A stretch of DNA of 54,573 nucleotides, filler included, from Sluysia triapertura (Eukaryota): assembly GCA_046118255.1 (NCBI GenBank). It is 4 parts of 4 records of this genome, joined end to end, with 100 filler letters (N's around TTAATTAATTAA, not from the genome) between each part and the next. Parts side by side here need not be neighbours in the genome. Positions count along the whole stretch, not along the records: positions 1 to 13,813 come from JBJNIA010018077.1; 3 more parts are not named here. One strand, written 5' to 3'. The notes below the pieces were generated by a model. That model did not search any database and was not told where the DNA came from. It was given only the letters and a program-made list of their open reading frames with translations. Below, piece by piece: positions 1-43,795 of the stretch (the stretch's first letter is position 1; the number at the start of each line of letters is the position of its first letter). The translations under genes and the position numbers were made by a program.

Positions 1-74
<74 letters not shown>
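1..74. repeat. (TAT)n microsatellite at window start
   Basis: Perfect trinucleotide run. Similar runs at ~1263-1320, 3233-3300, 20781-20839, 28004-28077, 43276-43348 and 54505-54573. Confidence 0.98.
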
Positions 75-75
<1 letters not shown>

Positions 76-1151
76 GTAATAAATGTACCGGATAATATTA
101 AATCAATTTATAATTTATGCAGGAAATAAGTAAATATTTTATTGTTTTTATGAATTATTACAGTTTCAAAATTTAAAAATATATTTTGAGTCGTAAAGTT
201 TAGATTTTAAAAACATCGAGTACAATTTTCTTTTTGATATTGTATTTTGTTCCAGTAATTTTCTATGATTTCAATAAACAAAAGAAAATCAAGTACATAT
301 TAAATCACAGCATCGTAGATAAAACGAGCCTATAAAATTTTAGTTAAATAAGATTTATTTGCTAAAATATACCAATCATTGGACTTTGTTTTAACAATTG
401 TCATTTAAATTTTTTGTTTTAGTTTACATTACATGGCGGCCAAATTAAAAACTTTTCATTTAATTTATTTTTTGAGCTTTAAATAAACGAAAAAAACTGG
501 CTATTCTAGATATAATACGACATGATTAGAAAGAGGTTTGAACATCACATAAATTTCAATATTTTTTTGATTTATGTTATTAATTCACCTGGTCACTTAT
601 TGAAGAGATGGATAAATAGTATATAGTCTACATCATGCATCTGTAACTTAATTATCTTACTTAATTATCTTGTCAAACGTTAAAGATATTATAATTCATC
701 ACTTGAAATTTTTCTAATATTAAAAATCGACGAAAATCAATAATATTGGTGTAAAATATTAATTTATTCCCAAATAATCACGTTATTCAAAACAGCATTA
801 TTCAAGGTTTATTTGTCATATACTTCATTTTGACAGTTTGATAAGTGAATCATTTCAATTCTTCATAATAATTGAAATTGCGTATTAAAAACTTACTACG
901 TTCGAAACCGAGTTATGCAATGCATTCAGCTTAAACTATATTTAAATATATTATCTAAAGAATGTAGATCAATATTTTTAACATAAATTAAACATTCATA
1001 ATTCAATTTCTCTTTAATACTACATTCATCAAGTCCCTAAATAGACAATAAATTTTTAAACTTTACGAATAATTTAATGATAATTTAATATATATTTTAA
1101 AATGATGTATACTAAAGTATTTATTTTTAATTGTATTCTATTTATTTTCAG

Positions 1152-1249
1152 TATCTTCAGTCAATAGCGCCGCAACAATTAGATAATGACAGTACTCATT
1201 TATTTGATTTAATGGGCAGCATCAAGTTGAACAGTAGAAAAATGAAAAA
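1152..1249 (+). CDS. Possible isolated coding exon of an unidentified gene
   Basis: ttttcag acceptor, one open frame (YLQSIAPQQLDNDSTHLFDLMGSIKLNSRKMK), gtatgt donor, GC higher than flanks. No family recognised. Confidence 0.3.
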
Positions 1250-1262
1250 GTATGTACTTAAG

Positions 1263-1322
<60 letters not shown>

Positions 1323-3232
1323 TTTATATTATTATGTACTTTTATTTTTTATTATTGGATAAAAATATTTACCTGCAGTCAAAGGTTTCTAAATAAATAG
1401 AATCAATATATTAAAATTGATTAAATAATTGTACGTATAAAAAATAGTTTATTAAAAAATAATTTAATAAAAAATAATTTATTATATTTTTAAAGTTTAG
1501 TGCAATTTACTAAGGTAATATAATAATGAAACTAATTTATTTTGTAGCTGAAACAAATTATTTTTAAATAATAATACTATTTTTAAACAAACAATATTTT
1601 TTAAATTAATTATTCATTTTTAATTTTAGCAAGGTAATTTTTTAATATAATTTGTTAGAGATATTTTAAGATGACCACATTGGAAATTTAAAATTGTACA
1701 ATTTTTAAATTTATTAGTATTATTAGTATTAGTATATTAGTAATAGTCTATTAGTATTAGTATTTTTAATCCAATTATTAGAATAATTGGAATATATTTA
1801 CAAAACGAAACATGCATGCAAAAATGGTAACAATCACATCAAATCATCTTAAGAAAAATTTTACATATTTACAAGACTCTATTACACGCTTAATACTCAA
1901 AGACGGTAATCCGACAGAAGTTCAAGTGGCATTCAAAAGTATCCACTGCTAAATTTAATTTTGGCATTAAATAAAATTGATTTTTTCATCACAGTGTTGT
2001 TGAATCGGTTAACCAAAAGAATTACCAAGATTTTATAATGGAAATATTATCAAGACTAAGCAATTAGAATTATTAAATTACAAACGGCAGTGCCTTACAA
2101 TCACAAACTGATATATTAACACTTATTGAACACGTTGTTAGCAAATTGAAGTTTAAATTCAAGATTAGCTGAAAAAAGAATAATTAATAGATTAATAATA
2201 TTAAGCTATTATGTTATAATCAAAAAATTATGCCCTAAGGTTACGTTTTATTGTACTTTTTAATTTCCAAACAATTATAAAACTATCAAATACACTAGGA
2301 TATATCAAATTAAGCGAAAATAAGAACATGTTATAGAATATGTTATTAAACGATCTTTTAATATGATTAAACAAGTTTCATTGTGCTTATTTTATTTGAA
2401 ACCTAAACGTGATAATATTATTGTGAGAATTTATGTAATATAAATGTAATATAAAATTATAAAAAGATATTAATAATCTTAAGATAAAATATTAACTGTA
2501 AAAGAATATTTAAGTAACAAAAAATTGATGGAACTCGCCAGATTTCATTATTAAACAGGGAAGAAACGGATCAAACAGTGGTAAACGAAGAACGAAAAAA
2601 ATCTGATTTTGTAAACATAGAAATGAAGAAACAATAATTAGCAGGAATAAACTAATACCGATAAGAATGTAATTACCAAACAAATGCATATAAATGTCTA
2701 CATGAATTATAATATGATCAAACCAATAGAATACAAGAAAATGCATTAATAAATAAAATAGGTCACGCTGTCACAATAATCTATGTATTAGGTTCATTTA
2801 ACTATTACAATCAAAAAATTTAAGTATAGAAAATTAACTGTATAAAGTTACAGTAGAATCAAATCAAAAAAATTATTGACCTCATAATATTATCAGTTGG
2901 AAGACCAAATAAGGTATTGTTTTTCATAATTAACTGAGAAACGGAGACAGTAATAACTATATAGACAAGGCACAACAGTAATAACTAATTTTTATATTGT
3001 AAATTTAATAATACACACTTGCTGTTATCATGATCTTATTGAAAATTCATTGTGATTTTATTTAAAAACAGTTGATATTCGTATTAGTTATTATATGAAT
3101 TATATTATTTGAATTTTGTATTATTTGATAATATTAATCAATCATTCACTAATAAAATAATTAAATCTGAAATAATTAAAATTTAAAATATTTATTTTCT
3201 ATGTAGACGTAGAAAATTAAATTTACATTAAC

Positions 3233-3302
<70 letters not shown>

Positions 3303-3309
3303 GATATAA

Positions 3310-3605
3310 TGTAACTTTATGCGTACTGTCATGGTAGAGAAGCCGATCTGAAAATAAAATAATAATATTAAATAATAATAATAAGAATATTAATATTAAT
3401 AATAGAAAGAAAAAACTTACCTTATTTGACCTAAAATTACTAAAAATAAATAATACTAATATTACTTACTAGATATTTTCTTCGTCACCATTTGGTTATC
3501 TAAGAATAAAAATAAATATTAATAATATTATTAATCATTTCTTACTGGAGATATAAAAAGACCATTGAGGTCACAAAGAAAACATAATTCAATTCATTGT
3601 TTGTG
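3310..3605 (-). pseudogene. Micro-exon spliced locus (small secreted-peptide gene remnant or ncRNA)
   Basis: Three consecutive GTAAG..AG introns: 3545-3500 (46 nt), 3469-3431 (39 nt), 3420-3348 (73 nt). They separate exons of 30 nt and 10 nt. No clean ORF across all exons. Confidence 0.4.
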
Positions 3606-5887
3606 CAAGTGTTCTTTCCTAACTAGAACTTTCTTACAAAAGATTATCGTCTGGAGCTGAGCTCGGCTAATTAGATACGGTTTACGTCACGAGCGGACGA
3701 CGGTCTAATTAGGCTTTAAAATAAGAAACGTGATGATCACTTATTGATAAGTCAGTAAGGCTCCTTTCAGTAATATTATGAATGTTAAATTATCTTTTAT
3801 TATGCTTTAATTTAGAAGTTAAACCAGCCTTTGTACGGTCTGATTTATACAAACTGTATTTTATAAAAATTAATCAAGAAAGACTTAATATTATAAGATT
3901 TATTATTTACAAATCGGTTGGATGCACAGAGTTTAGTTATAATGATAATAATAATATTCACTTTAGCACCTTAAACTTAATGTTTAGGTACAAAATAATT
4001 GAAAATTTAAAAGATTTTAACCTATCCTTTAACGGTATACGATAATACAATCAATTTAAGTCAATTTTATATTCTACCTGTTACGGTTAGAATAGTGAAC
4101 CCTATTTAATAAAAATTTACCTATGCATGGACAATAGCTTGATCCTTGAAAATTTTTCTCCATTTGCGATATCGAAAATTTTCTCTGAGTCCTATTTCTA
4201 AAATGTGTAGTTTATATATACAATCCTTACTTCCTTGTTTACTGTTTATATTCCTAATTTCGCTTTTGATTCATTAAAACAAAGTTATAAATTTAAAAGT
4301 GTAAATTATTATTTATATTTAAAAGTTTAAATTATTATTTATTTGTTATAATAATGATAATATTTAAGAGATAAATACTATAAAAATAAATAATTAATAA
4401 CTAAAATTATTCAAATTGTCAAAATAAAATAAATTACGATTGTTAAAATAATTAATCAGATATTATTAGAATAAAAATCGGATATTATTATTTGTTAATT
4501 ATTCCATTATTATTTGTTAATTATATGTCCGACAGTTCGACGATATATGTATGACAGTTCGACGATTCCGACATTTGAAAAATAAAGAGTTTACTTAGCA
4601 GATTTTGTGGTTTAATTGGTAACGCAATTTTTGAAAAAACAATTGAAAAGGAATACGTTATCTGACATTAATCGTTTTTGGTAACAAATTTATTCGTCGA
4701 AGAAATATTAGTAAACCCAACCAGTTGTCGATAATATTGATCTTCTGCTCGTCGGAGAAATTTCATTGTTTAACACTTTAGTAAATCAATTAAGTCAGTA
4801 ATATTTAGTCCGCTCGTTGGAAAAGTTCGCTTATTAGATTCCCGTGTGACCTGAATAAATAATTTATTTGATTTTGTGATCGAGAATTTTTTGAAACTAT
4901 CAGTAAGATTTTTATGTTAAGTTTAATCTATATTAGGAGATATAAAAATACTACTCAAAATCTTAATCATTACCTTTAGTTTCGGCTAGGCACAAAATCA
5001 TTTTTAGAAATCTTTAATAATAATTTTAATTTATTTTTATTATTATTTGAAGTAAATGGTTATATATTCTTCGTTTTTGATAATATATTTTGTAGTGTTA
5101 CGTCGTTGATTTAGTTAATTTTTTAAAGTAATTGCTGAGTTGACAAAGCTGAGTTCGATTGAAGTAAGCATAACATTTTAATTGATATTTATGATTTACA
5201 AACAGTTATTAAGCTAAAGAAGCATAAATATAAAGTTTTATATTTTTAAGTAAATTAAAAAGTAACCATAATTAAGTAACCATAATAGAAGAGAGTCCTT
5301 TCTAGAATTAATCATTTAGACTAAGAAAAAGATTAACTTTTGAAGGGAATAAGATTTATAGGTGATTAATATAAGAAAATTAGGACATAAGTTAATTGTG
5401 AGAAAAACCCTCAGAAGATTTATAATCTTTGTTATTAATTACAAGAAAAGAGTATACATTTGCATATATTTCAATTACAAGAAAAGCTTTTTTAAGTTTA
5501 CGTGCTGTTACTTACGAGTGCGTCTCCTTAGAATTAAAGCATACATCGTAAGCGGACCTTTAGAATTAAATAAGGAAATACTAACAGTACTAATACTGAA
5601 ACTTAAATTTATCTCGTTTAGAATGCTGAACTTATAGTAACTGATTCTAATATTTAATGCATTATACTGGAAGTTATCGTTCACACGTATCTGGTGGAAG
5701 ATATGGAACTGCAAATTCATTTAACAAAGTTTAAATTTGAATTTTCTCTTTTTGTCTTAAATCAAATAAGCTAGATTAAACTAAATACAAACCTTGAATC
5801 ATTCAATACAATATTTATCAATTTGTAACGAACTCAAAAAAATAATCATTTGTTTAAAAAACGGTTAGTTGTTACCACATATAATTT

Positions 5888-7370
5888 CAGTGGTAGCCAC
5901 ATTATTAGACTAAAACAGAAAAAATATGTTTTCTTTGGATTTCTTAATATTTGCTCATTATTGAATGTGTAACATAAGAAATATTATATATAATACACGA
6001 AATATTATGTATAATATACAAAATTCGATATATAATATATCTATGTTCTAAATTGCCTATATAATTAGATTATAATAAAAATATGATATGTGATAAGTTG
6101 TTTTAATTTGAAAAACTAAAAGTATCTGCACAATTTGTGGTTTTATCTTGATATTAATGACATCATTAGCCTTGACATATTGATTAGAATATTTTGTTAA
6201 GTGAGTTTTTTTTATATATCGATTCGAAAAAAAGGCCAAAATTGAAGTTTATCTTAAAAAACTGAAATGACGCAAGAAGATATTGCCAAAAATGTATGAG
6301 TTTGTCAGAAATCCATGTCAAGGGTGATGTATCAATTAAGTGGGAAAATGCAGCAGAAAGAAGAAAACATTAGTGAGAAATGATGGATATTTGGTGAAAC
6401 TTTCTACGATGAATCGTAAAGCCACCAGTATGATTTTGCAGAAGCAGTTAGAGACTTGCGGAATTCACGTTAATGCTAGAACAGCCAGAAGGAGACTTGT
6501 AGACCCAGAAGAAAGCCTAAGTTGGCGCCAGTAAAAAGGTTTGCAAGGCTAAACAACACCAGCATTTAACAGAGGATGACTGGAATCAAGTGAGTTTTAG
6601 TACGAGTCGTCCTTTCGAGTATTGGATGAAAAGACCACCTTTGGAAGAAGGAGACCTGATGAGGAGTTTCACTCTGATTGTGTCATAGAAACTGTGAAAT
6701 GTCTAACAATGATAGTCTGGTCGGTTATCTCCATCCATGGTCATGGCAGGCTGTACAGGTTGATGGAACAATGAATCAACATCAATATATGAATGTTCTT
6801 GAAACAAGGATTTTTCCTCAACTTCAGGATAAGTCCAAGAACGGTGATCTCCAATTTATGCAGGATGGTGTACCATGTTACATGGTGAAATCAGTGCGCA
6901 AGGTCATGGTGTTAATCTGGAAACTCTCCAGACATGAATCCCATAGAAAATCTGTGGAAGATTGTTTCAAGAAGAGTTTCTTCCCATAAACCAACTACCA
7001 GGACAGAACTTATTGAAACCCTGAAAAAGTCTAGGAATCATGATGACGATATCAAAGACTTGTACCCCAGGATAACAAAAGAGGTCAAACAAAGTACTGA
7101 TGCAACAGTTTGTACATTTTTTTATTAGGAGTAAATTGTGTTATCATTCTACATTAATAAAACTTCTATATGTTTTGGATCTCAGTATTTTTATCTCTTA
7201 TTTTACTTTCACCATAATTGTTTTGTAGAAAGTAGTTATTTTCCAATATTTTCATTTTTCCATGACATCTGTCGGTAAATGGCATGCATTTATACACTTT
7301 GGATTAATAGTTTCATAATATCTTGAATTTTATCACAATAATGGTTTGTCTAATAATTTGGTCACCACTG
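5888..7370 (+). mobile_element. Tc1-family DNA transposon, degenerate full-length copy
   Basis: 23-bp TIRs (CAGTGGTAGCCACATTATTAGAC vs rc CAGTGGTGACCAAATTATTAGAC, 20/23), TA on the right flank. Broken transposase: HTH-like 6340-6534 (HVNARTARRRL), WNQVSFS..ES, FMQDGVPCY, SPDMNPIENLW. Confidence 0.93.
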
Positions 7371-7801
7371 TACCTTATGAATTTTTCTTTTAATAATTTA
7401 TTGATAATATATCAGTCTAAATACTCTCTCTTCAAAACACAATAAAGATTCAGTAAAAATGTTTAAAATGCAAAATGTCAAGAAGTTAAAACACATTATT
7501 AGTAACAATTAATTTGTACAAATTATACGTTAATAGAATAAAAACAACTAAATTATATTTTTTATACTCTTTTTTCACTATGACTTATTCTTGTTCTATT
7601 AATACTATTTATTCTCACTCCATTGTCAATTACTTTTTCAAAATAAAATTTAACTGGATACTATACCAGTACTATTCATTTTCATTCTATTGTTGATTAT
7701 TTTTTTGGAACGATACATTAAATAGCTTTATTTTTAGTTTAGAATTATTTTTAATTAAATTAAATTTATATTTATTATTTTTTGATAATTTATCTCAATT
7801 G

Positions 7802-7977
7802 TTAACCCTTCCACTGCTCTACACGTATATATTTATAAAAATAATGTGTTTCATAAGCTCCAAGCGAGTATTTTTGCATCATGTTTTAAAATGGTTTCCT
7901 CCTCAACACAAATAAACTCGCAACCACTAAAATATATGTGCGCAGCGGTCGCAAAATTTCAAACGTGTTAGGGTTAA
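7802..7977. mobile_element. Possible piggyBac-type MITE
   Basis: Bounded by TTAA-CCCT ... AGGG-TTAA. The TIR is poor beyond the first bases. Confidence 0.3.
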
Positions 7978-8131
7978 AAGGTTAATTTAATTATGTTCAC
8001 TACATTAACTTCGGTTTATGTTTTTTAGTTGTGATGTTTTTAGGTGTGATGTTTTCTGATAAGTAATTCGTACTTGATATACAAGATAGATACATACATA
8101 TCAAGATTGTAGACTTTACTTGAGTCATTTG

Positions 8132-9970
8132 CTAGTCTCCGTATATAAGCGGTATTTGATTATTTGTAGCGTATTCATAAATTGGAGGTGGAAGTACTGG
8201 CATACCTGGAGGAGGAGTGTAATTATTCCTATGTGGAACTGTATATGCGTCGTCGTCATTATTATTGTTATGTGGCAAACATGGGTATCGACAACTATTC
8301 GAAACAAACATAATAATAGTCAATACCACTATAGCTAAAGCCATTACGAACAGTATTGCCGCCACAATTAATATCACTAATGCTGGATCATTTCGTAATA
8401 TTTCCAATATTGTTAAATGTTTTCTTGTTCCTTTAAATGGAAAATTCAAATATTTTGATGAGTGGCGGAATTTCACTATAATATGTCTATCTTCGACATA
8501 TAAAATATCTGAGCAAACCGTGACTGGATATCTCAATTCACTATTAATATAATTTTCGTATATGATCCACGAACTAAAATTAAGTCTGGCAGGTTTTAAA
8601 CATGCAAATTTGGCATGAATGTTTTGATTCAATATCTTAACTTTTACTTCATTGTTTCTATTATAGAATTCACAATATTCCGTTTTAAAAGATTGTTCGT
8701 GACATTGAACTATTGTAATTATCGTAATTAAAATCAAATGTATAAGATTTTTATTATTCGCAGGAGCCCGTATTTTCGTACCTATTTGAGATAAGTAGAG
8801 TATTGTCCAAAATATGTATAGTACCGCAAAAATTAGGAATATTGTAAAGAACTTGTAAGAGTGTCCCGTTGTACCTTCTGTAGTTGAATTATTTAAGTTA
8901 CTTATCGGTTTCTTAATTGTACCATAATCGGATAAGGTTGTCTGTATTTTCGTTGTTTCTTCATTTCTCAATTGATCTATTTGCTTAATAAATTTCCAGA
9001 TGTCTCGTGTATTTCTTTGAGTGTCGAAAGAAAAAGTTATTATCATTGGTCTATAACCGTAATGTAGACAATGTGGGATTCCGTTTAAACGATGTGGTTT
9101 CCCCACCAGTAAGGGTTTTAGGTAGATGCAATAGATTTCGAATTTATGTCGTAAAATCATTTTCTTAGAAATGAATTCGAACTTCCAATATTGATTGTAA
9201 ATATCGGTAATCATTATTTTCTGTTCCCTGCCATGATTTGTAGCTATATTCATATTTTTATATTCTTCGTCTGTTTCTGTTGCCATGACATTAGTTATAA
9301 GTGACAGAAGAATCACAATTAAGATAGAAAGCCAACAAATTATCTTTCCGAAACGATATTTATTAAAACAATTTCTTTTTCTTATACTAGTCATTATCAT
9401 TACTGTATTCTGAATATCTGAGTTGATTCCTGAATCCGAATTTTCCTCTGATTTAATTGCCGATGGTGATCCCCATGATACATCCGATAAATGAAGTGTA
9501 GAATCGACGATAACAGGTAATGGAAAATCTGGAATTTGTAATGGTGGATTCGACATAGGCATTTGATGTAAAGTTAATTCATCGCCAACTTGTGGAACTA
9601 ATAGTTGCGGTATAATCATATTTGAACCTGGTGGTATTTTTATAAATCTATATTTACTGTGAATAACCATATCTTCCAATTCATATGGGCCATTATCCCA
9701 ATCATTTACTAAATTTAGTACATATTGTACTAATACTTCTATATAGCATGATAGAGTTCCATTGATATTTATAGGTGTTTGATTTACATTATATGTTACC
9801 AGACTTGGTCTTTTTAAGAATATTGATTCCCAAGTAGTTAGAAAATTTTTATGAATGACAGTAATAGTAGTGCCGGTATCTACGATTGCTCTAACCCAGC
9901 GTCCGTTAAACCGCACATTTTGCATTATATGAGCTAAGTCATTTCCATGAGAATGCATCATAAATACCAC
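8132..9970 (-). CDS. 612-aa ORF: retropepsin-like aspartic protease fused to multi-segment membrane/secreted polyprotein (element accessory/env-like ORF)
   Basis: N-terminal VRFNGRWVRAIVDTGTTITVI. Hydrophobic segments KIICWLSILIVILLSLITNVMA, FFTIFLIFAVLYIFWTILYL, LIHLILITIITIVQC, ALVILIVAAILFVMALAIVVLTIIMFV. Pro-rich tail with PPIY. Confidence 0.85.
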   Translation of the reverse strand: MVFMMHSHGNDLAHIMQNVRFNGRWVRAIVDTGTTITVIHKNFLTTWESIFLKRPSLVTYNVNQTPININGTLSCYIEVLVQYVLNLVNDWDNGPYELEDMVIHSKYRFIKIPPGSNMIIPQLLVPQVGDELTLHQMPMSNPPLQIPDFPLPVIVDSTLHLSDVSWGSPSAIKSEENSDSGINSDIQNTVMIMTSIRKRNCFNKYRFGKIICWLSILIVILLSLITNVMATETDEEYKNMNIATNHGREQKIMITDIYNQYWKFEFISKKMILRHKFEIYCIYLKPLLVGKPHRLNGIPHCLHYGYRPMIITFSFDTQRNTRDIWKFIKQIDQLRNEETTKIQTTLSDYGTIKKPISNLNNSTTEGTTGHSYKFFTIFLIFAVLYIFWTILYLSQIGTKIRAPANNKNLIHLILITIITIVQCHEQSFKTEYCEFYNRNNEVKVKILNQNIHAKFACLKPARLNFSSWIIYENYINSELRYPVTVCSDILYVEDRHIIVKFRHSSKYLNFPFKGTRKHLTILEILRNDPALVILIVAAILFVMALAIVVLTIIMFVSNSCRYPCLPHNNNNDDDAYTVPHRNNYTPPPGMPVLPPPIYEYATNNQIPLIYGD

Positions 9971-9982
9971 TTGTTTATTCCT

Positions 9983-12900
9983 TAGTGCGTGAATTGAAGG
10001 CGGTTTATATTTCTTAAATTGTACTCCTCTTTTGGTGCCATTTTACATCTATTAACGTGTACTACGAATGTTTCGGAATTAACTTTGTTAGGATCTTTAA
10101 CACATTTGTATTGGTAACTTTTGTTATTAAATAAGGACCTTTAAAAGGTTTGTGTAACTGACCAGGTTTAGTTATTGTATAATATATTAATACTTCATCA
10201 CCTATTTTAAAAGTATGTTCCTTCGCTGTTTTATCGCATGCATCTTTATATATTTCTTGAGAGTATTTAATTTGAAGACCTGCGCGTTTCCATGCATATT
10301 GTAATTGTTTTCTCATTGTTGTCACATATTCCGAAATCTCCACGTACTGTGAAGTTGGAGGAACCCACTCCAAATCTACTGGCATGTTAGAATGTCTGCC
10401 GTACATTAAATAGAATGGAGTAAAATTAGTTGCCGGGTGTACAGAACTTCTACATGCAAAAAGGCATGGTGCTATATATAAGTCCCAGTCAGTCTGTCTA
10501 TCATTTACGTAAGATTGAATCATATTAATAAGAGTTCTGTTAAAACTTTCCACTAATCCGTCAGTTTGTGGATGGTAAGGAGATGTATAAATTCGAAGAA
10601 AATTGAAGATTTTAGCCACTGATTTAATCACATTGCTAGCATAGTTAGTTCTATGATCTGTTAATAATTTTCTAGGAGTTTCATATTTGTAAATGATCTT
10701 TTCTACCAATATTTGTGCCACCGTTTCGGTCTTTTGATTAGGCATCGGGTATGCCTCTGGCTATTTAGTCAGGTAATCCGCAAATACATTTATATACTTA
10801 TTACCATTAATAGTCTCTGGAAGAGGACTCGTAATGTCCATAGCGGTAAATTCTATTGGTGATAATGGTACTAGCATAGGTTTTAGTGGTACTTTAGTCT
10901 TTTGTCCAGTATTCTTTCGTCGGCAACATATCGAACAATCTTTACAGCATTTCCTTATATCCGATTCCATATTTTCCCAGTAGTATTTACTTTTAATTCT
11001 TGATAATGTTTTCCTCGTTGATAAGTGACCTCCTAATTGTCCGTCATGACATTGTATTAAAATAGGTATAATTAATGATTCCGGTATAATAGTTTTCCAT
11101 TCGTCTTTATTATTTTTAAATCTTAATATTCCATCCATAATAGCTAGTCTTTTTGATTGTAATTCGTTTAAAGTTCCTTTAGCTAACCCATCTAGAATAG
11201 CCGAAATCTCTTTATCTTCTCTCTGATGTTTAACAATGTCTTCAGAGTTCTGTAATTTTCCCGATACTGACATAATTTGTATCAAATTGATACTTCCCTT
11301 ATCATCTACATTCGTCAATCTAGACATACAATCGGCTCCGTTATTTAAGCTACCTGGCTTATAAACAATTTCCAAGTTAAATTCTGATAGTTTGTTGAAC
11401 CATCGGTTGAGTCTACTAACTTCGTCTCGGTGATTATATAAATATGTTAAAGGTTTGTAATCAGTGTACAAATATACTTTCTGTCCTAGCAAGTAATGTC
11501 TGAACAATTTACATGCATACACAATTGCTAGGCATTCTCTTTCGACTGTTGAATAATTCATTTCTGCTTTATTAAGTCTTCTACTGGCGTATGCTATAAC
11601 TGCTTCACGATTATTTTTATCCTTTTGACCTAAAATTGCACCGATAGAATAGTTACTAGCATCCGTAGTTTATTAACATCCGGAAATATTAATATTGGTG
11701 CTGTAGTTAGATGTTCTTTTAGTTCCTTAAATGCCTTTGCCTGTTCTTCGGTCCATTTAAATTCTACATCCTTTTTTGTAAGTTTTCTAAGAGGTTGTGC
11801 AATTTTCGCAAAATTTTTTACAAATCTTCTATAATAATTAGCCAAACCTAGAAAACTCTGAACCTTTTTAACGTTATCAGGTTGAGGAAACTTAATTACC
11901 TTTTCAATATTTCTTGGATTTGGTTTGATACCATCTTTAGATACTATGTGTCCTAAGAACTCGACTTTTTCTTCTGCCCATACACATTTTGTAGGTTTTA
12001 TTTTAAGTCTTGCAACTTCTAGTCTTTTGAGTTTTAAAATCTTTTGAAAATATTATGATGTCATCTATATATACCATAACATTCTTGCATCCTGATAATA
12101 CAAAATTCATACAACGCTGGAAAGTTGCTGGTGCGTCGGTTAAATCAAAAAGCATTTTTTCGCACTCATATAACTCATTTCCGCACGTAAACGCTGTTTT
12201 ATGTTTATCTTTTTCTGCTATTTCAATTTGCCAATATCCACTTTGTAAATCTAAACTTGTAAAATATGTAGCGTTTCCTAATTTATCCAACATCTCATCT
12301 ATTAGTGGCAGTGGGAACACATCTTTTCGTGTTATTTTATTCAATTCTCTAAAATCTATACAGAATCGCATCGTGCCATTCTTCTTTTTAACTAGTAATA
12401 CTGGTGATGAAAAAGGAGAGAAACTCGGTCTTATAACTGCGGCTTTCTTCATAGTGTCAATTTGATCTTGCATTTCCTTTTGATTGCATATAGGGATTCT
12501 ATAAGATTTTCTTCGAACTTATAAGGTTATCTTCTGTTAATGGTATTTCATGTTTTATGATTAATGAATCTCCAATATCATATTTATTTTTTGAAATTGC
12601 TCTTGGATATCGATATATAACTTCGTATAGTTGTTCTTTTTGTTTTTTAGTTAGATTTATGTTGTTAATTTGAATTTCTCCGTAATCCTCCTCTTGTATG
12701 TCGTGTTGTAGTTTTATTGTATTATTTTTTTAATCTGTCACCACGTTAACATGTGTTGGTATTTTATAATTAACAATTCTTCCTAATTTAGTTCCTATGA
12801 ATAACCATTTATTATCATTTGTATAATTTATAATTCGAACAGGTATCTTCCCTTCGCAATTATTACAGATCGAATCTGCAATACCTACATCCAATTTCTT

Positions 12901-13425
12901 TTGGTTAGTCTCTGAAGCTATAAACATAATTCGGCCAGTTAATGAACTATTTGTTTTTGCTGGCATTATATATTCGGTTCTACGCAATAACCATAATGGT
13001 TCATCAACATAAACATCATCATCATCATCGATAGTTCTGTTTGAATGACTATCCATCAATTTAACACTATTAAAATCCAGTATTACTTCTTTTAGTTGTG
13101 ACAGTATATCCATTCCCAATATCATGTCTTCTGGACATTTTTTCATTACTCTCAATTTTACGTCGACTTTATTTTGCCCTATTTCGCATACGGCTTTCAT
13201 TACTCCAACAATGTGTATGGCATCTCCGGTGACTCCTGATAAATGTGAAAAATGATTTGCTACATTTCCTTGTTCCTCTTCTGTTAATTGATTTTCATTG
13301 ATTAATGATGACACTGCCCCTGTATCTACTAGTGCCAAAATGGTTCTTCCATTAATTTTAACGTTAGCCATTGGTCTCTTGGAATTGTTATAATTATTAT
13401 TTGCACATATTATCATATAAACCAC
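9983..13425 (-). pseudogene. pol: Gypsy pol (protease, reverse transcriptase, RNase H, integrase), disrupted
   Basis: ORF pieces 12730-13425 (PR), 12003-12473 (RT), 11630-11845, 10761-11561 (RH, IN zinc finger), 10062-10745 (IN core). In-frame stops at ~12730 and ~10761; frameshifts or deletions near 12520, 12030, 11665 and 10100. Confidence 0.95.
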
Positions 13426-13471
13426 ATTTGGTATCGGTGTCGTTGGAGGATTTGGATAAATTTTATTATCC

Positions 13472-13813
13472 TTATCTTTGATTATCCTTATGTATATCCT
13501 TTTGTGATTTTCTAAGATTTTCCTTTAACTCTTCAATTTCTTCAATTTCATCATTTTGAATTGTCTGTAATGCTACATTTTCATTTTCTATTCTCGTTCT
13601 TTCTTTTCTTAACGCATTTATTTGTGAGTTAGCGTGATGATGTAACAAATATTTCGCCAAAAATGGAAAACAACCTTTTATCAATTTCCAAGTAAAACCT
13701 GAAATCTTATAAATTCCTACAACAGATAAAACTTGGGATATTATTAACGCTATTACTTTAATAATTATGTAAATACCAATTAATCCTGAGAAAGCTTGAC
13801 CTAAAATTAGAAA
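13472..13813 (-). CDS. C-terminal fragment (TM anchor + cytoplasmic tail) of a putative viral-type envelope glycoprotein, chuvirus G / gB-like
   Basis: Frame is open from the gap edge: FLILGQAFSGLIGIYIIIKVIALIISQVLSVVGIYKISGFTWKLIKGCFPFLAKYLLHHH, then a charged tail. The pattern resembles the C-terminus of chuvirus-type glycoproteins as recalled; not verified by search. Confidence 0.6.
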   Translation of the reverse strand, partial: FLILGQAFSGLIGIYIIIKVIALIISQVLSVVGIYKISGFTWKLIKGCFPFLAKYLLHHHANSQINALRKERTRIENENVALQTIQNDEIEEIEELKENLRKSQKDIHKDNQR

Positions 13814-13913
13814 NNNNNNNNNNNNNNNNNNNNNNNNNNNNNNNNNNNNNNNNNNNNTTAATTAATTAANNNNNNNNNNNNNNNNNNNNNNNNNNNNNNN
13901 NNNNNNNNNNNNN
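13814..13913. other. Assembly gap linker
   Basis: 44 N + TTAATTAATTAA + 44 N. Confidence 0.99.
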
Positions 13914-14859
13914 TATTATTAATATTATTTATTTATTATTATTATTTATTGAATGAATATCATAAATCTATTGAATGAATATCGTAACATATATATAATA
14001 TAATATTAAAAAAATAATGTAATTTATTACATTAGTTTATAAAATATCGAATTGCCTGTTTATATTTTTTGTAATCCTTTAGGGGCTGATGTTTTTTAAA
14101 ACATTCCTCAGGATGGAGCCCGTGTTTTCGCAACAATATACTGTTTCTTTTCTACCTTTTATTTTTCGATCACTACAAAATAGCGCAGTCCTTGGAATTA
14201 CTTCGTTCATTTAAAATAAAAAAACATTTTCTTATATGACCATCTTCGACATATGACGGATTACATAAACTAATTAGTGTTGAGGTTGCCTCGGCGGTGG
14301 AACGCAAAAGGTTAAGAGATCAAAACCTCTTAAGCAATCTATATGCTAATAATTATTTCTTCCATTAGGATTATTTACATTTTCGGTTTTATTGGTTATG
14401 TGTAAATAATCTACAAAATAATTAATTAGAAATTAACAATTACTTTGTATATTTTCGAATTTTGAAATATCTTTTGGGTGTTCTTCCGAAAATTAAATTA
14501 TGTCCAACATGTTTATGTTCTTGAATTTTTTCTGCTATTTTCCTTTTAAAAATCAAAGCTTACTTCAGGACATATAAAATACTTTCGTCACAAAAATTTA
14601 TTCATTTTCGTACTAAAAATAAAAATTTGTTTTTACCAGTTTTAATAGAGTTAAATGTTGTTTCACACGTTAAATATTGTTTCACACGTTAATACTTTAA
14701 AATTTAATTTGCATTCTACTTTTAATAATTTAAATTTATTTAAAGAACAATTAAATACATACTACAAACATTTTTATTTCCTAAGAATCACAATAAATGA
14801 TGTACAATTTTTCAACATAAATGCATTATTGAATGTATTAGTGATGTCGATTTGGAAAA

Positions 14860-25574: not shown

Positions 25575-25692
25575 TGTTGGGATAAAAGACTGTAATAAAA
25601 TAAAAAATTGTTAGACTGGGCTGATAGCTCGAACTGCGCAGCGAGAGGTCCCGGGTTTGATCCCCGGTCAGTCCACTTTATGAAGTATAACA
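25575..25692 (+). mobile_element. tRNA-core short element, copy 1 (internally deleted)
   Basis: TGTTGGG..TAACA termini, 4-bp TSD TATG, tRNA-like GGGCTGATAGCTC..CCGGGTTTGATCCCCGGTCAGTCCA. Confidence 0.85.
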
Positions 25693-25717
25693 TATGGTTT
25701 ACCCGAGTTCATGCAAT

Positions 25718-25876
25718 TGTTAGACCATTATAAAGTGGTCTGACCTGTGATCAAACCCGGGACCTCTCGCTGCGCCGTTCGATGCTTTACCCACTGAGCT
25801 ATCAGCCCCGTCTAACAATTTTAATTTATTATAGTGAATAATACCATCATGGCACTTTAGGCCTTTTACCCCAACA
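25718..25876 (-). mobile_element. tRNA-core short element, copy 2
   Basis: TGTT..AACA termini, 4-bp TSD CAAT, 73-nt tRNA-like core at 25736-25808 with A-box TAGCTCAGTGG and B-box-like GGTTTGATC. Confidence 0.88.
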
Positions 25877-26688: not shown

Positions 26689-26799
26689 TAATAATAATAA
26701 TAATATATTAATTTATATTGCCCTCATATCTACCGCGAAAGTACTCAAAAGCGCTTAAGGTAAATCATTCACCATAATATTTCTGAAACAGAAAGAACT
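26689..26799 (-). mobile_element. L2-clade LINE 3' end
   Basis: rc reads AAGCGCTTTTGAGTAC..GATATGAGGGCAATATAAAT followed by a (TAT)n tail. 67 nt are identical to 43449-43515. Confidence 0.75.
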
Positions 26800-33800: not shown

Positions 33801-34204
33801 AAGATCATAGTTATAATAATACGTATTAATCGTAATTTAATATATTCATTTTTTTAATTACATGTATTTTTATATTTATTGATTATATAATAAGTTATTA
33901 AACTTCGTTTTTGCCGTCCTTTTAAAAAATTAAGCTTTTTGTACATGTGTTTTAATTCATCATTTTGTGTAATATTCAAAATTGTAATTAACCTAAATAA
34001 AATACATTTTCCTTGATTTATAAATCTTGATTTATTATAAAAAGATTCATTTTTTTAATAACATGTACTTTTATATCTATTGCATATAAAATGTGTTAAT
34101 AAAAAAATTTTTTTATTAACTTCATTTTCGCCATCCTTTTAAAGTCTCTATATATCAATTAAAATTAAGTTTTTTTGTGCCTTTTTCATTTATAATGCAT
34201 TGTA

Positions 34205-37200
34205 ATGGCCGATTCTAAGTATAGTCCACGCAGTAAGCGTTCAAAACGTTCATATACCAATGATAGAACCAAACGAAGGTCCGATGATTCATCAAATTAT
34301 TCTGATGATAGATCGCACAGAAAGTCTAAGAAGAATCATTACAATGAAAGTGATTCACGGTCATATACACCAGATTCGTCAAGAAATTCCTCACAGTCAT
34401 CACGCTTTAGTTCGTATTCTGCCCAAGATTCAAAAAAGAAAAGTCAAAAAAGATCTTACAAAAGGTCTCGTCGATCTCGCTCTTGGTCAAAGCGATCTTC
34501 TAGTGGTAGCAGTAGTAGTAGCAGAAGCAGTAGTAGGTCATATTTAGAAAAAAAGAGAATAACTCGACCTAGAATAAAAAAGCAGGTTTGGAATAACAAA
34601 GTGTACATAGTTGGAGAAGGTATGAAGGAAAACTCTTTTCATTTTTGTGATTCATGTTCACTTCCTATATATATATATATATTTATTGTCGATTAGTTCC
34701 TTGTAAACACGTGTTTTGTATGAATTGTGGTACAAAATATCAGAATAAAAAGTGTCCCAGATGCGAGAAACAGGTCACGATGACAGAAGCATGTCCGTAT
34801 CACACAATTTTTATGTGCTATGAAGGTGGAAGTTCTCATAGCACTCAGGGTTGTCGTCGCACTTATTTTTCTCAGCGTGATCTCAACTCGCATATAAATC
34901 ATAGACATAAAAAATCATTGCCTGGTATTAGCGCTATTTGCGCAACTAGTGCATCAACAGCTGCTCCCACAGGTTCATGTCCTACAATTACAGCTCCTAT
35001 TGTATCTGTGTCAGGTACTATGAAAGCTCCACATGCTTCTTTAGGTATGCCAGTTATTAGTGGTGCTGTTGGAGGAATTCCTGTTTCTGCAGTTGCTGCA
35101 GTTTTTAATTTACAAGCAGTAGCAGGTTTACCATCAAATCAATTTTCGAATGCCGCAGTGCCGCCTGGTGCGTCTACTCCATCTATTGTCGGTCCAAATC
35201 CATTACACAACAGCAGTCAATCGTCAAATGCGTTAATGCAATCAATGACTAATTTATTTCATACTATTACGAGAAATCAACAGTCTCATGCACCTTACAC
35301 AAACCCAGTCAATATCAATACAACTGCTAAGACAAATATAAACACAGGAACAAATTTAGGACAAATTACACCTCGACTAACGGCCCACCAAACAATTCTC
35401 CTGTAAACACTAGTAGACCACCACCACAAGCACAGACTCTTAATCCATTATCTTTACTTCAGTGTGCAAATAATCCACAGAATGCATTACCTGGTTTACT
35501 TAATCAAGTAAATATTTAATTATATTAAAAATTATTGAAACAAGGTTTACTCTTATTTATTGCGGCAAGATGAGAGTTGTATTTTTATGGGAATATTTTA
35601 TATTTAATGTAGTTCGGTTTATCATATTTTATGAACAATCATATTTTTATATACACAATGTTTGTATCTACTATAGAAAATACATAGAAATGAACACTAA
35701 GAACGAATCAAACCAATAAATTTATTTTATTCTACTTCATTTAGAATTTATATCATTTTGAACCTTTACTTACTAATTCACCAATACAGTAAATTAGTGA
35801 ATTATTGTATTCAGCCATTTTAGCTGAGAATTTCTGTAGCATTTCAAGATTTTTAATATCGTTTAGAATCGCTTTAGTTAAGAATTAGATTCAGAAAAAA
35901 ACGGTTTTAATCGATAGTAATTTTAATTTAAAACACATGACATGTAATTTTAACATCTCATAACTTTTAATTATATTATTAATATCTGATTATATTTTTA
36001 TAGTTTTAATACATAAACTTACATCCAATAACTTAACTTTACAAATACGTAAGTTATACGCTATAATTCAACTTATAATCGAGTTTTTTGACAAGGATGA
36101 AATTTAATTTCGATAAATTTATCTCTACGAACATCAAAAGCTATGAGAAATATTAACAAAGCATTTGACAAAAATAAGCAAACGTTAGAACCCTTAAGCG
36201 ACAAGTTAACGATGACAATATAAGTTTTCAAAATGAGTGCCGAAACTCATAGGAATCTATTATGTACTTGAAGGAGTTATTTGTCTTGGATCCTTGGAAA
36301 AGCCAAATTTTGATGATTTTCTACATATAATTAATCAATATTAATCATCGCTCATCGATTTGTGATATTCCTTGCTTCTATATTTTGGATCATGTATTAT
36401 AAAGTATTTCAAAGGCTTCAAAAGCCCGAAACATTTACTGTACGATACTCAACAGTTTGTGTTATATTATAACCTTAAATCACAACAATGTGCATAAAGA
36501 GATATCTATCAAGTGGCCATCATTAGTTAAATAATAATGCTAAACTGAATATTTCAAGTTAACCATTATGGTAGTGAATCAACTTCAATGTGAATCATTT
36601 TTTCATTTTTCGTACTTCAAACTCGGTACCATCTAATTACCACTTTTCGAAGAAGTGCTGAATCAGTTTAGTCAAAACGGAGTGCTCGATCTGTTAAGTA
36701 TGTCTAAAGTTGAAATAAATGAAATTCTACGTAAAGTTTAGTAATGCAGTGACGCATTTGGTTCTTATTTTGATTAAATAAAATCAATTTTGAGTAGCTA
36801 TTAACTTAATTTTGTTATATAAAAATATATACGATTACTAAATTTTTTGCGCATTAAATTTTATGCATTAGGTTTTAAAGATTGATGCAATACTAAGCGA
36901 AATTTTTACATTAAATTATTACTATTTAACTTAGTAAGATATTTTAAATTTTTGATCTGATTGTATTTAATAGCATGAAATACTGAAAAAGGAAATGTAT
37001 TAAAAATTATAAGCCAAATTAAATTAAATGTTAAAAAGATTCTAGAATGTTACGAAAACTTCTTGATAAATATACCTTGATTTGTTTGTTCGTTTTTTTT
37101 AAAGGTTAGTATTGTATAGAAGTACACTACAAATTTAATAAAATTAATAATTGCAATAAATATTAATACTTTAATTTATTATGAATATTATGTAAATTAT

Positions 37201-42096: not shown

Positions 42097-42252
42097 TGTT
42101 AGACTTCATAAAATGGACTAATGGAGGATCGAATCTGGGACCTCTCGCTGCGCAGTTCGGTGCTCTACATTTGAGCTATCAGCCCCGTCTAACAATTTTA
42201 TATTTCTATAGTCTATTATACTACATGGTACTTTTAGACCTGTATCCCAACA
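42097..42252 (-). mobile_element. tRNA-core short element, copy 3
   Basis: TGTTAGAC..CCCAACA on the + strand, 4-bp TSD ATAT, homologous to 25718-25876. Confidence 0.88.
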
Positions 42253-43448: not shown

Positions 43449-43795
43449 CCGCGAAAGTACTCAAAAGCGCTTAAGGTAAATCATTCACCATAATATTTCT
43501 GAAACAGAAAGAACTTTGCTTTTTCCTTAAATATTTCATAATCTTCTAGCAATTTGACATTATCTGGTAACTGGTTGTATATTTTTGAGACATAACAGTA
43601 TACAACCTATCACCTAGCTTGTTATGACTGTTAATTTTATATAGATTATTATTAAGTCTCAATGAAATATTCATCTTCATTTCCAATATTCGTATTATTT
43701 CCAAAAGATATTGAGGACTTCCGTGATGTAAGCAATTGTAAATTATTGTCATAATTTTAAATTCTATTCTTGCTTTTATTGGCAACCAATAAAAT
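43449..43795 (-). mobile_element. L2-clade LINE, 5'-truncated (ORF2 C-terminus and 3' UTR)
   Basis: WLPIKARIEFKIMTIIYNCLHHGSPQYL..GDR is the typical L2/CR1-group post-RT motif. Confidence 0.8.

Follow-up and report, generated by a model that had tools for sequence, protein, structure and literature searches.

A stretch of 54,573 nt from Sluysia triapertura (GenBank assembly GCA_046118255.1; four parts joined with filler, of which positions 1 to 13,813 come from JBJNIA010018077.1) was analysed and is referred to here as the window. It contains a decayed Gag-Env-Pol Ty3/gypsy copy of the Burro/planarian-errantivirus type which carries, behind its integrase, a second aspartic protease domain (PR2) in addition to the canonical protease (PR1). 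The reading preferred here, at a probability of about 55%, is that PR2 is a retropepsin of accessory type in a giant, Burro-like Ty3/gypsy element, and that such accessory proteases release Pol from membrane tethers. Retroelements normally carry one protease, located before the reverse transcriptase, and retroviruses and retrotransposons with long terminal repeats (LTRs) are taken to use that single protease for all maturation cuts. PR2 lies at the start of a separate open reading frame (ORF), ORF2, with the following features.

8132..10042, minus strand: ORF2, 636 codons, with PR2, a linker and a membrane protein region; starts just behind the integrase tail
9956..9970, minus strand: V-V-F-M-M motif, candidate site of N-terminal self-cleavage by PR2; same pattern in relatives
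9728..9976, minus strand: PR2, recognised as a retropepsin over the N-terminal two thirds (profiles, Pfam, Atlas, AlphaFold model)
9620..9727, minus strand: expected place of the last strands and GxD helix, unrecognisable in any frame (profiles; predicted local distance difference test score (pLDDT) of the model <50 from residue 102)

A preliminary description of this DNA had proposed a second retropepsin downstream of integrase, quoting VVYM and VVFM contexts ahead of the DTG triads of PR1 and PR2. Both contexts are present on the minus strand (for PR2, VVFM at 9970-9959 and DTG at 9880-9872), and the proposal itself was borne out by profiles compared with shuffles, by Pfam, by Atlas features and by a structural model. 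Using profiles built from the proteases of relatives, with PR2 left out, PR2 scored 48.7 bits against the accessory type (12 relatives' domains; positions 5-85 of 123) and 35.7 bits against the canonical type (8 relatives' domains), compared with 5.9 and 5.7 bits, respectively, for the best of 500 shuffled controls; a pooled relatives' profile gave 51.3 bits (positions 6-86 of 125). The gag-asp_proteas hidden Markov model, suggested earlier as a check, matched the first 121 ORF2 residues with an E of 7.4e-5, a partial match (profile positions 2-31 of 92) below the curated cut-off. Atlas features scored 0.95 to retropepsin clusters, and a sequence search of the PDB with PR2 returned a best E of 0.15. 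An AlphaFold model of 131 residues, structure prediction having also been suggested, was confident over approximately residues 15-101, with pLDDT <50 at 1-14 and from 102 and no C-terminal helix, and matched the retropepsin fold (equine infectious anaemia virus (EIAV) protease, Z 9.0, root-mean-square deviation (rmsd) 3.7, 99 aligned; Ddi1, E 1e-3). Because aligned sequences of 13 other retropepsins guided the folding, this model is not independent of the sequence match. In PR2, as in retropepsins generally, the D[TS]G triad follows two beta strands. Taken together, these data identify ORF2 residues 23-105 as a true retropepsin, and it is very probable that PR2 is a real second protease typical of its lineage.

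The C-terminal third of the domain could not be recognised in this copy. The absence of an ILGxD motif, noted in the preliminary description, was confirmed in all three frames and by one-gap alignments: the match ends at ORF2 residue 105, the other two frames yield nothing, and allowing a single gap, the 40 residues that follow align no better than shuffles, of which 39 in 300 did equally well. A Trp-anchored match for the PR2 tail was rejected, as it ranked 4th of 625 windows and fell below the range of true tails. All 15 intact post-integrase domains of the relatives have a hydrophobic-hydrophobic-G-x-D/N helix about 70 residues past the catalytic Asp, and in the relatives the GxD/N glycine is 67-72 residues past the first triad residue; no such helix was found in PR2. 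PR2 thus shares with retropepsins (MEROPS A2 and kin: those of human immunodeficiency virus (HIV), EIAV, Ty1, PEG10 and Ddi1) the DTG triad and the N-terminal two thirds of the fold, but differs from them in having no recognisable helix motif. Judging from retropepsin structure as treated in the available portions of PMC7212762 and PMC6952103, the loss of the GxD helix and surrounding strands suggests that this copy of PR2, which is also out of frame with integrase, is probably inactive. Contigs of run X1 over ORF2 have 91 indels and 490 joints; among the 12 indels and 15 joints listed, none fell inside PR2 or at the integrase/ORF2 junction.

Relatives of the element were found with the window integrase, which is 51-57% identical to 12 proteins along most of its length and 56% identical to a further, partial one, followed by a drop to 40%; metagenome loci matched at 45-56%. 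A search with the reverse transcriptase-integrase region of the longest relative gave 16 clade members (52-81% identity) among the best 120 of 435 matches, the remaining listed matches being mostly concatenated gene models of other gypsy elements. After removal of near-duplicates (P0002, P0003, L002, L007, L009, L011, L012) and of fragments or broken loci (P0004, P0031, L008, L010, L013, L015, L022), 32 non-redundant relatives from public metagenomes were counted. Intact relatives consist of a single frame of 2,600-4,100 aa encoding capsid, zinc knuckles, cargo, a Monjiviricetes/gB-type fusion protein and Pol, with the Pfam Monjiviricetes_fusion domain in frame between capsid and protease. Ankyrin and ubiquitin-like modules occur in some relatives, and RING, Ig and DEDD exonuclease modules are carried as well; BIR, MATH and BCL2 domains were not seen in the relatives, and the window is without the element's 5′ half. 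P0010 and P0150 are deposited as proteins of bacterial metagenome-assembled genomes (Turicibacter, Flavobacteriaceae), and are probably animal DNA binned by mistake.

An intact, in-frame post-integrase protease is present in 13 of the 32 relatives (15 domains, each of which keeps D[TS]G as well as GxD/N), and three more post-integrase domains are degenerate. Twelve of the 32 carry an extra protease, or two, between Env and the canonical one, a minimum count since many relatives' rows are 5′-incomplete. Proteases in all three positions occur in 7/32, and at least one extra protease in 18/32. Among 50 gypsy Pol proteins from outside the clade, of which 30 include the protease and 26 extend more than 230 aa beyond the integrase core, none had a post-integrase protease and none had more than one protease. 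The catalytic Asp of PR2 lies about 48 codons from the integrase tail, within the 26-57 residues behind the integrase end seen in relatives, so that the spacing in the window fits an in-frame integrase-protease fusion. The post-integrase protease is better conserved than the next 100 residues in 6 of 8 pairs. An old duplication had been suggested as the source of PR2, and this agrees with the 18-25% identity between canonical and post-integrase paralogues within one element (6/6 elements); paralogous proteases overall have diverged to 18-31% identity.

In L005, L007/P0011 and P0130, a degenerate, DTG-less protease stands in tandem behind the post-integrase protease and is followed by ankyrin repeats. 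These three degenerate domains form one clade (support 100/99), and each could form a single-chain pseudo-dimer with its neighbour.

The pattern [VIL]-x-M-[VILMA], 18-38 residues before the catalytic Asp, was found in 11 of 15 intact post-integrase proteases, 3 of 13 pre-canonical ones and 4 of 20 canonical ones of the relatives, and also precedes both window proteases; the background for a slightly stricter pattern was 30 of 1,427 20-residue windows (2.1%). Its distance to the Asp fits the N-terminus of a mature retropepsin (Asp25 in HIV protease). The cleavage-site-like motif that had been pointed out as common to PR1 and PR2 is present, but it is a lineage trait of accessory proteases rather than special to the window copy. 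It is a plausible candidate for a self-cleavage site. Ty1 sites, as given in the available portion of PMC6952103, have Val or Ile at P2 and P2′, in agreement with the motif.

The element itself lies in AT-rich eukaryotic DNA (GC 0.20-0.34 in 2-kb bins). Pfam identifies a Ty3/gypsy pol on the minus strand, between about 13,430 and 10,020; protease, reverse transcriptase, RNase H and integrase follow one another as in Metaviridae. By tblastn against intact relatives, the env-pol region (13,813-10,020) has six frame changes and two in-frame stops. Its features are as follows.

13586..13813, minus strand: Env C-terminal membrane region, gB-type (Monjiviricetes-like), upstream of pol (tblastn with relatives' Env)
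13081..13425, minus strand: PR1, canonical retropepsin (Pfam RVP, E 7e-12, above cut-off)
12778..13020, minus strand: interval between PR1 and reverse transcriptase, homologous to the same region in relatives (phmmer match to P0064 2280-2360)
11642..12518, minus strand: reverse transcriptase (Pfam RVT_1); frame breaks near 12515, 12030 and 11650 (tblastn against intact relatives)
10761..11669, minus strand: RNase H and integrase zinc finger (Pfam RT_RNaseH, E 9e-35; Integrase_H2C2, E 3e-19); in-frame stop at end
10024..10760, minus strand: integrase core and C-terminal tail (Pfam rve; 51-57% identity to clade integrases)

The Env remnant, directly before PR1, is 47-58% identical to relatives' Env over 72-76 aa (tblastn E 2e-13 to 2e-16); N runs at 13814-13857 and 13870-13913 adjoin it, the more 5′ part of the element is lost in this gap, and no Gag is visible in the window. 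PR1 has VVYM at 13425-13414, DTG at 13326-13318 and ILGMD at 13122-13108 (minus strand), with a D-to-G spacing of 70 that matches the relatives. The interval at 12778-13020 had no Pfam match in the window; the corresponding region of Burro is called dUTPase-like in the text of PMC6431247. By tblastn, frame changes near 10090 and 10020 part integrase from ORF2. The GC content of ORF2 at third codon positions is 0.25, the same as that of pol, and ORF2 is open across 636 codons compared with 7-8 breaks in the 3.8 kb of env-pol upstream (Poisson P 0.02-0.03, post hoc). No homolog of whole ORF2 was found in 3,161 candidates, among 1.84 billion representatives or in 590 pattern hits. No LTRs or primer site were found in the window, where the element meets an N gap on its 5′ side and has its 3′ end near 8000, nor in any of the four relatives' contigs searched, which are probably cut at repeats.

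Phylogenetic trees place the window element inside the clade of relatives, with support of 97/94 from the unbroken RNase H-integrase frame (a tree that left out 4 of the 32 relatives, which are without RNase H) and 97/99 in another tree. On the element tree, the extra-protease trait requires five changes, at least three of them forced by starred branches. Accessory proteases are helpers that an element can do without, acquired or lost on several occasions. Grouping accessory against canonical proteases gave the best protease tree found (p 0.64).

Downstream of PR2, ORF2 encodes hydrophobic segments at the following positions.

9269..9361, minus strand: hydrophobic segment 1, signal or anchor-like (Kyte-Doolittle peak 2.6)
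8777..8860, minus strand: hydrophobic segment 2 (Kyte-Doolittle peak 2.4)
8285..8410, minus strand: hydrophobic segment 3 (Kyte-Doolittle peak 3.5), then a Pro-rich tail

A membrane polyprotein downstream of PR2 had been postulated, and hydrophobic segments are indeed found there both in ORF2 and in the relatives. Behind integrase, or behind the last post-integrase protease, most relatives have a signal-like hydrophobic segment, then an ectodomain and an anchor. Of the 13 elements with a post-integrase protease, 11 have a downstream hydrophobic segment, 28-113 residues past the last protease in nine and about 390 in two. A widespread ectodomain repeat behind integrase, modelled from L002 (10423-10710), has a fibronectin type III (FN3) fold (pLDDT 81; Z 10.3, rmsd 2.5, 82 aligned) with equivalents in P0008, P0009, P0064, L001, L003 and L007; L003 and P0009 have a similar FN3-like module before the canonical protease as well, and P0168 has an Ig domain downstream. 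The window ectodomains scored 0.79 to viral glycoproteins with Atlas features, which is chance level. Among the 20 clade proteins that have two hydrophobic segments behind integrase, 12 finish with S/T-x-V/L, the class I PDZ-binding pattern; window ORF2 has no such end. A motif scan of the Pro-rich tail of ORF2 found PPIY at 8188-8177, presumably a PPxY late-domain or WW-binding motif. One or two separate ORFs of 440-710 aa lie past the polyprotein in L001-L012 (for example L003 10617-12104, L005 8592-9920, L001 2684-4135). Ten of the 12 compared are mutually related; Pfam recognises RNase_T (DEDD exonuclease) in two, and one encodes a RING protein. The window copy stops before such ORFs.

The layout of intact members (Gag, gB-type Env, an optional extra protease, canonical protease, reverse transcriptase, RNase H, integrase, an optional extra protease, signal-like segment, ectodomain, anchor and tail) suggests how release might work. 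With an Env anchor upstream and a signal-like segment downstream, hydropathy predicts that Pol would be cytosolic and tied to the membrane at both ends. The extra proteases adjoin these tethers and may dimerise while membrane-bound. By cutting their own N-terminal V-x-M-hydrophobic sites they would free integrase or Pol, together with accessory proteins and cargo, while the canonical protease is spared the task. Chances are about even that accessory proteases would cut Pol off its tethers at both ends. More tentatively, up to three active retropepsins of diverged specificity may share processing, the canonical enzyme serving Gag-Pol and the membrane-side ones detaching Pol from the tethers. 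Integrase would then be joined in frame to a second surface protein, with an FN3- or Ig-like ectodomain and a PDZ-type tail, which is possibly an attachment partner of the gB fusogen. Analogous arrangements are known from closteroviruses and nidoviruses, whose duplicated leader or papain-like proteases are paralogues in one polyprotein that each serve a nearby junction, and from the capsid-anchor release of flaviviruses, in which a cytosolic cut frees a protein from a signal anchor. These enzymes and viruses are unrelated to the present ones, and retropepsins must dimerise to cut.

Several observations weigh against this reading. Nineteen of 32 relatives have the same downstream membrane layout and pass from integrase to the membrane module without a post-integrase protease, which is thus not required. 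The earlier idea of a dedicated protease that frees integrase is upheld as far as a motif stands where an N-terminal self-cleavage site is expected, but not as a necessity. Several extra proteases flank ankyrin or zinc-finger modules rather than anchors, P0001 and P0099 (2 of the 13) end without a membrane segment, and the window ectodomains do not match the relatives' FN3-like repeat profile. In two of the eight pairs, the protease is no better conserved than the stretch behind it. Post-integrase proteases were rejected as a single clade (approximately unbiased test, p 0.028), and PR2 of the window is unplaced, as it may join the accessory group (p 0.64) or pair with PR1 (p 0.32). The V-x-M motif was defined post hoc, on relatives that are not independent. 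In addition, P1 and P1′ of Ty1 sites are hydrophilic in the available portion of PMC6952103, and Met at P1′ does not fit.

The attachment of extra proteases to cargo is the basis of an explanation in which each captured module (ankyrin, zinc finger or membrane protein) brings its own self-cleaving leader protease, so that cargo rather than integrase is freed and the module can join the polyprotein with no need to evolve a cut site that the canonical enzyme recognises. Arrangements such as protease-ankyrin-protease in P0073, protease-degenerate protease-ankyrin-protease-transmembrane segment in P0130, protease-zinc finger-protease in P0001 and, ahead of the canonical protease of L003, protease-protease-transmembrane segment-ectodomain-transmembrane segment are consistent with it, as is the intermixing of pre- and post-canonical proteases in the tree, where the pre protease of P0005 groups with the post proteases of P0001, P0112 and P0115 (98/98). 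However, many modules have no protease in front (the 19 of 32 tails), and the explanation overlaps with release from tethers, since one cut frees both sides; it is regarded as unlikely. The extra proteases might instead be effectors against host proteins of defence, apoptosis or ubiquitin pathways, like other Burro cargo, which is rich in apoptosis and ubiquitin domains according to the text of PMC6431247. The cargo modules of the relatives and the low identity of the paralogues, which leaves room for new specificity, would suit such a role, but regular placement at domain junctions beside membrane segments does not, and a host substrate is purely hypothetical, making this improbable.

Other explanations concern the window copy itself. 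Its PR2 could be a pseudo-protease, kept by the window family, that damps PR1 by heterodimerising, or ORF2 could have been retained by the element family or host for its membrane protein. The uninterrupted 636 codons of ORF2 beside a broken env-pol, and the three relatives that keep a tandem degenerate protease, point in this direction. A dominant-negative regulator had been considered from the start; it is possible only for the window copy and the three degenerate tandem copies in relatives, as the other 15 post-integrase domains keep both D[TS]G and GxD/N. The missing C-terminal third would have taken much of the dimer interface with it, to judge from the available portions of PMC7212762 and PMC6952103, and an in-frame loss in one dead copy gives the same picture, so that this explanation is distinctly unlikely. 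It is highly improbable that PR2 was left by a second gypsy element which had inserted behind integrase, or that it stems from a chimeric assembly. The copy is decayed and beside an N gap, PR2 is out of frame with integrase, and in the free tree PR2 falls among canonical proteases, although with no starred support. Nevertheless, no reverse transcriptase lies behind PR2, its frame continues into membrane segments, 13 intact relatives show a matching position and spacing, and codon-position GC equals that of pol. Coverage of ORF2 by many contigs of one run also argues against such an origin, weakly, as these come from one study that is possibly the window's own source.

Among known systems, Burro/GYPSM1, a planarian giant gypsy element, resembles the relatives in having, according to the text of PMC6431247, a single, very long ORF in which an in-frame Env separates Gag from Pol, an Env related to mononegavirus fusion proteins, a dUTPase-like protease-reverse transcriptase region, ankyrin and ubiquitin-like cargo (as in some of the relatives), and accessory ORFs; the Env end kept before PR1 is a likeness to the window. 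Unlike the present elements, it is described in that text, its figure aside, with a single protease and no post-integrase protease or membrane module, and its polyproteins, compared by description, are 4,873-5,140 aa rather than 2,600-4,100 aa. GAG-ENV-POL errantiviruses with HSV/gB-type Env (Platyhelminthes, Nematoda, Bryozoa; PMC13524379) have the same gene order and Env type. The main text of that paper uses the word protease once, in a standard POL description, and extra proteases go unmentioned there. The Env motif VYQE occurs five times in its supplementary file 2, each time in a Schmidtea mediterranea row, and [VIL][YF]QE is present in 17 of 18 clade Envs, which makes flatworms the likely hosts of the clade. 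No report of extra or post-integrase retroelement proteases was found in literature searches, although figures or supplements of earlier descriptions may annotate them; the consulted parts of PMC12440569, on Troyka, and of PMC5408684 had no bearing on the matter. The element type is already known, and the extra proteases may be its new aspect. Two or three divergent retropepsins per polyprotein would show how a membrane-threaded Gag-Env-Pol precursor of 3,000-4,000 aa is dismantled, and they would offer natural protease paralogue pairs for the study of specificity and dimer choice. Processing of Burro-type elements would become testable with small isolated domains. The window copy itself, decayed and with PR2 incomplete, matters less.

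Elsewhere in the window, an element of about 175 bp just past the 3′ end of the retroelement (7803-7977) has TTAA-CCCT...AGGG-TTAA ends and, by eye, a piggyBac-type miniature look. A plus-strand fragment at about 6340-7130 presumably derives from a Tc1/mariner transposase, and a minus-strand one at about 14100-14400 presumably from a piggyBac Cys-rich end. Short tRNA-like repeats occur at 25629-25844 and 42097-42221. An identical 67-nt stretch (26733-26799 and 43449-43515) lies beside two different N gaps and is perhaps an assembly artefact. A Hakai/CBLL1-type gene is encoded at 34196-35406 on the plus strand (zf_Hakai, E 2e-14).

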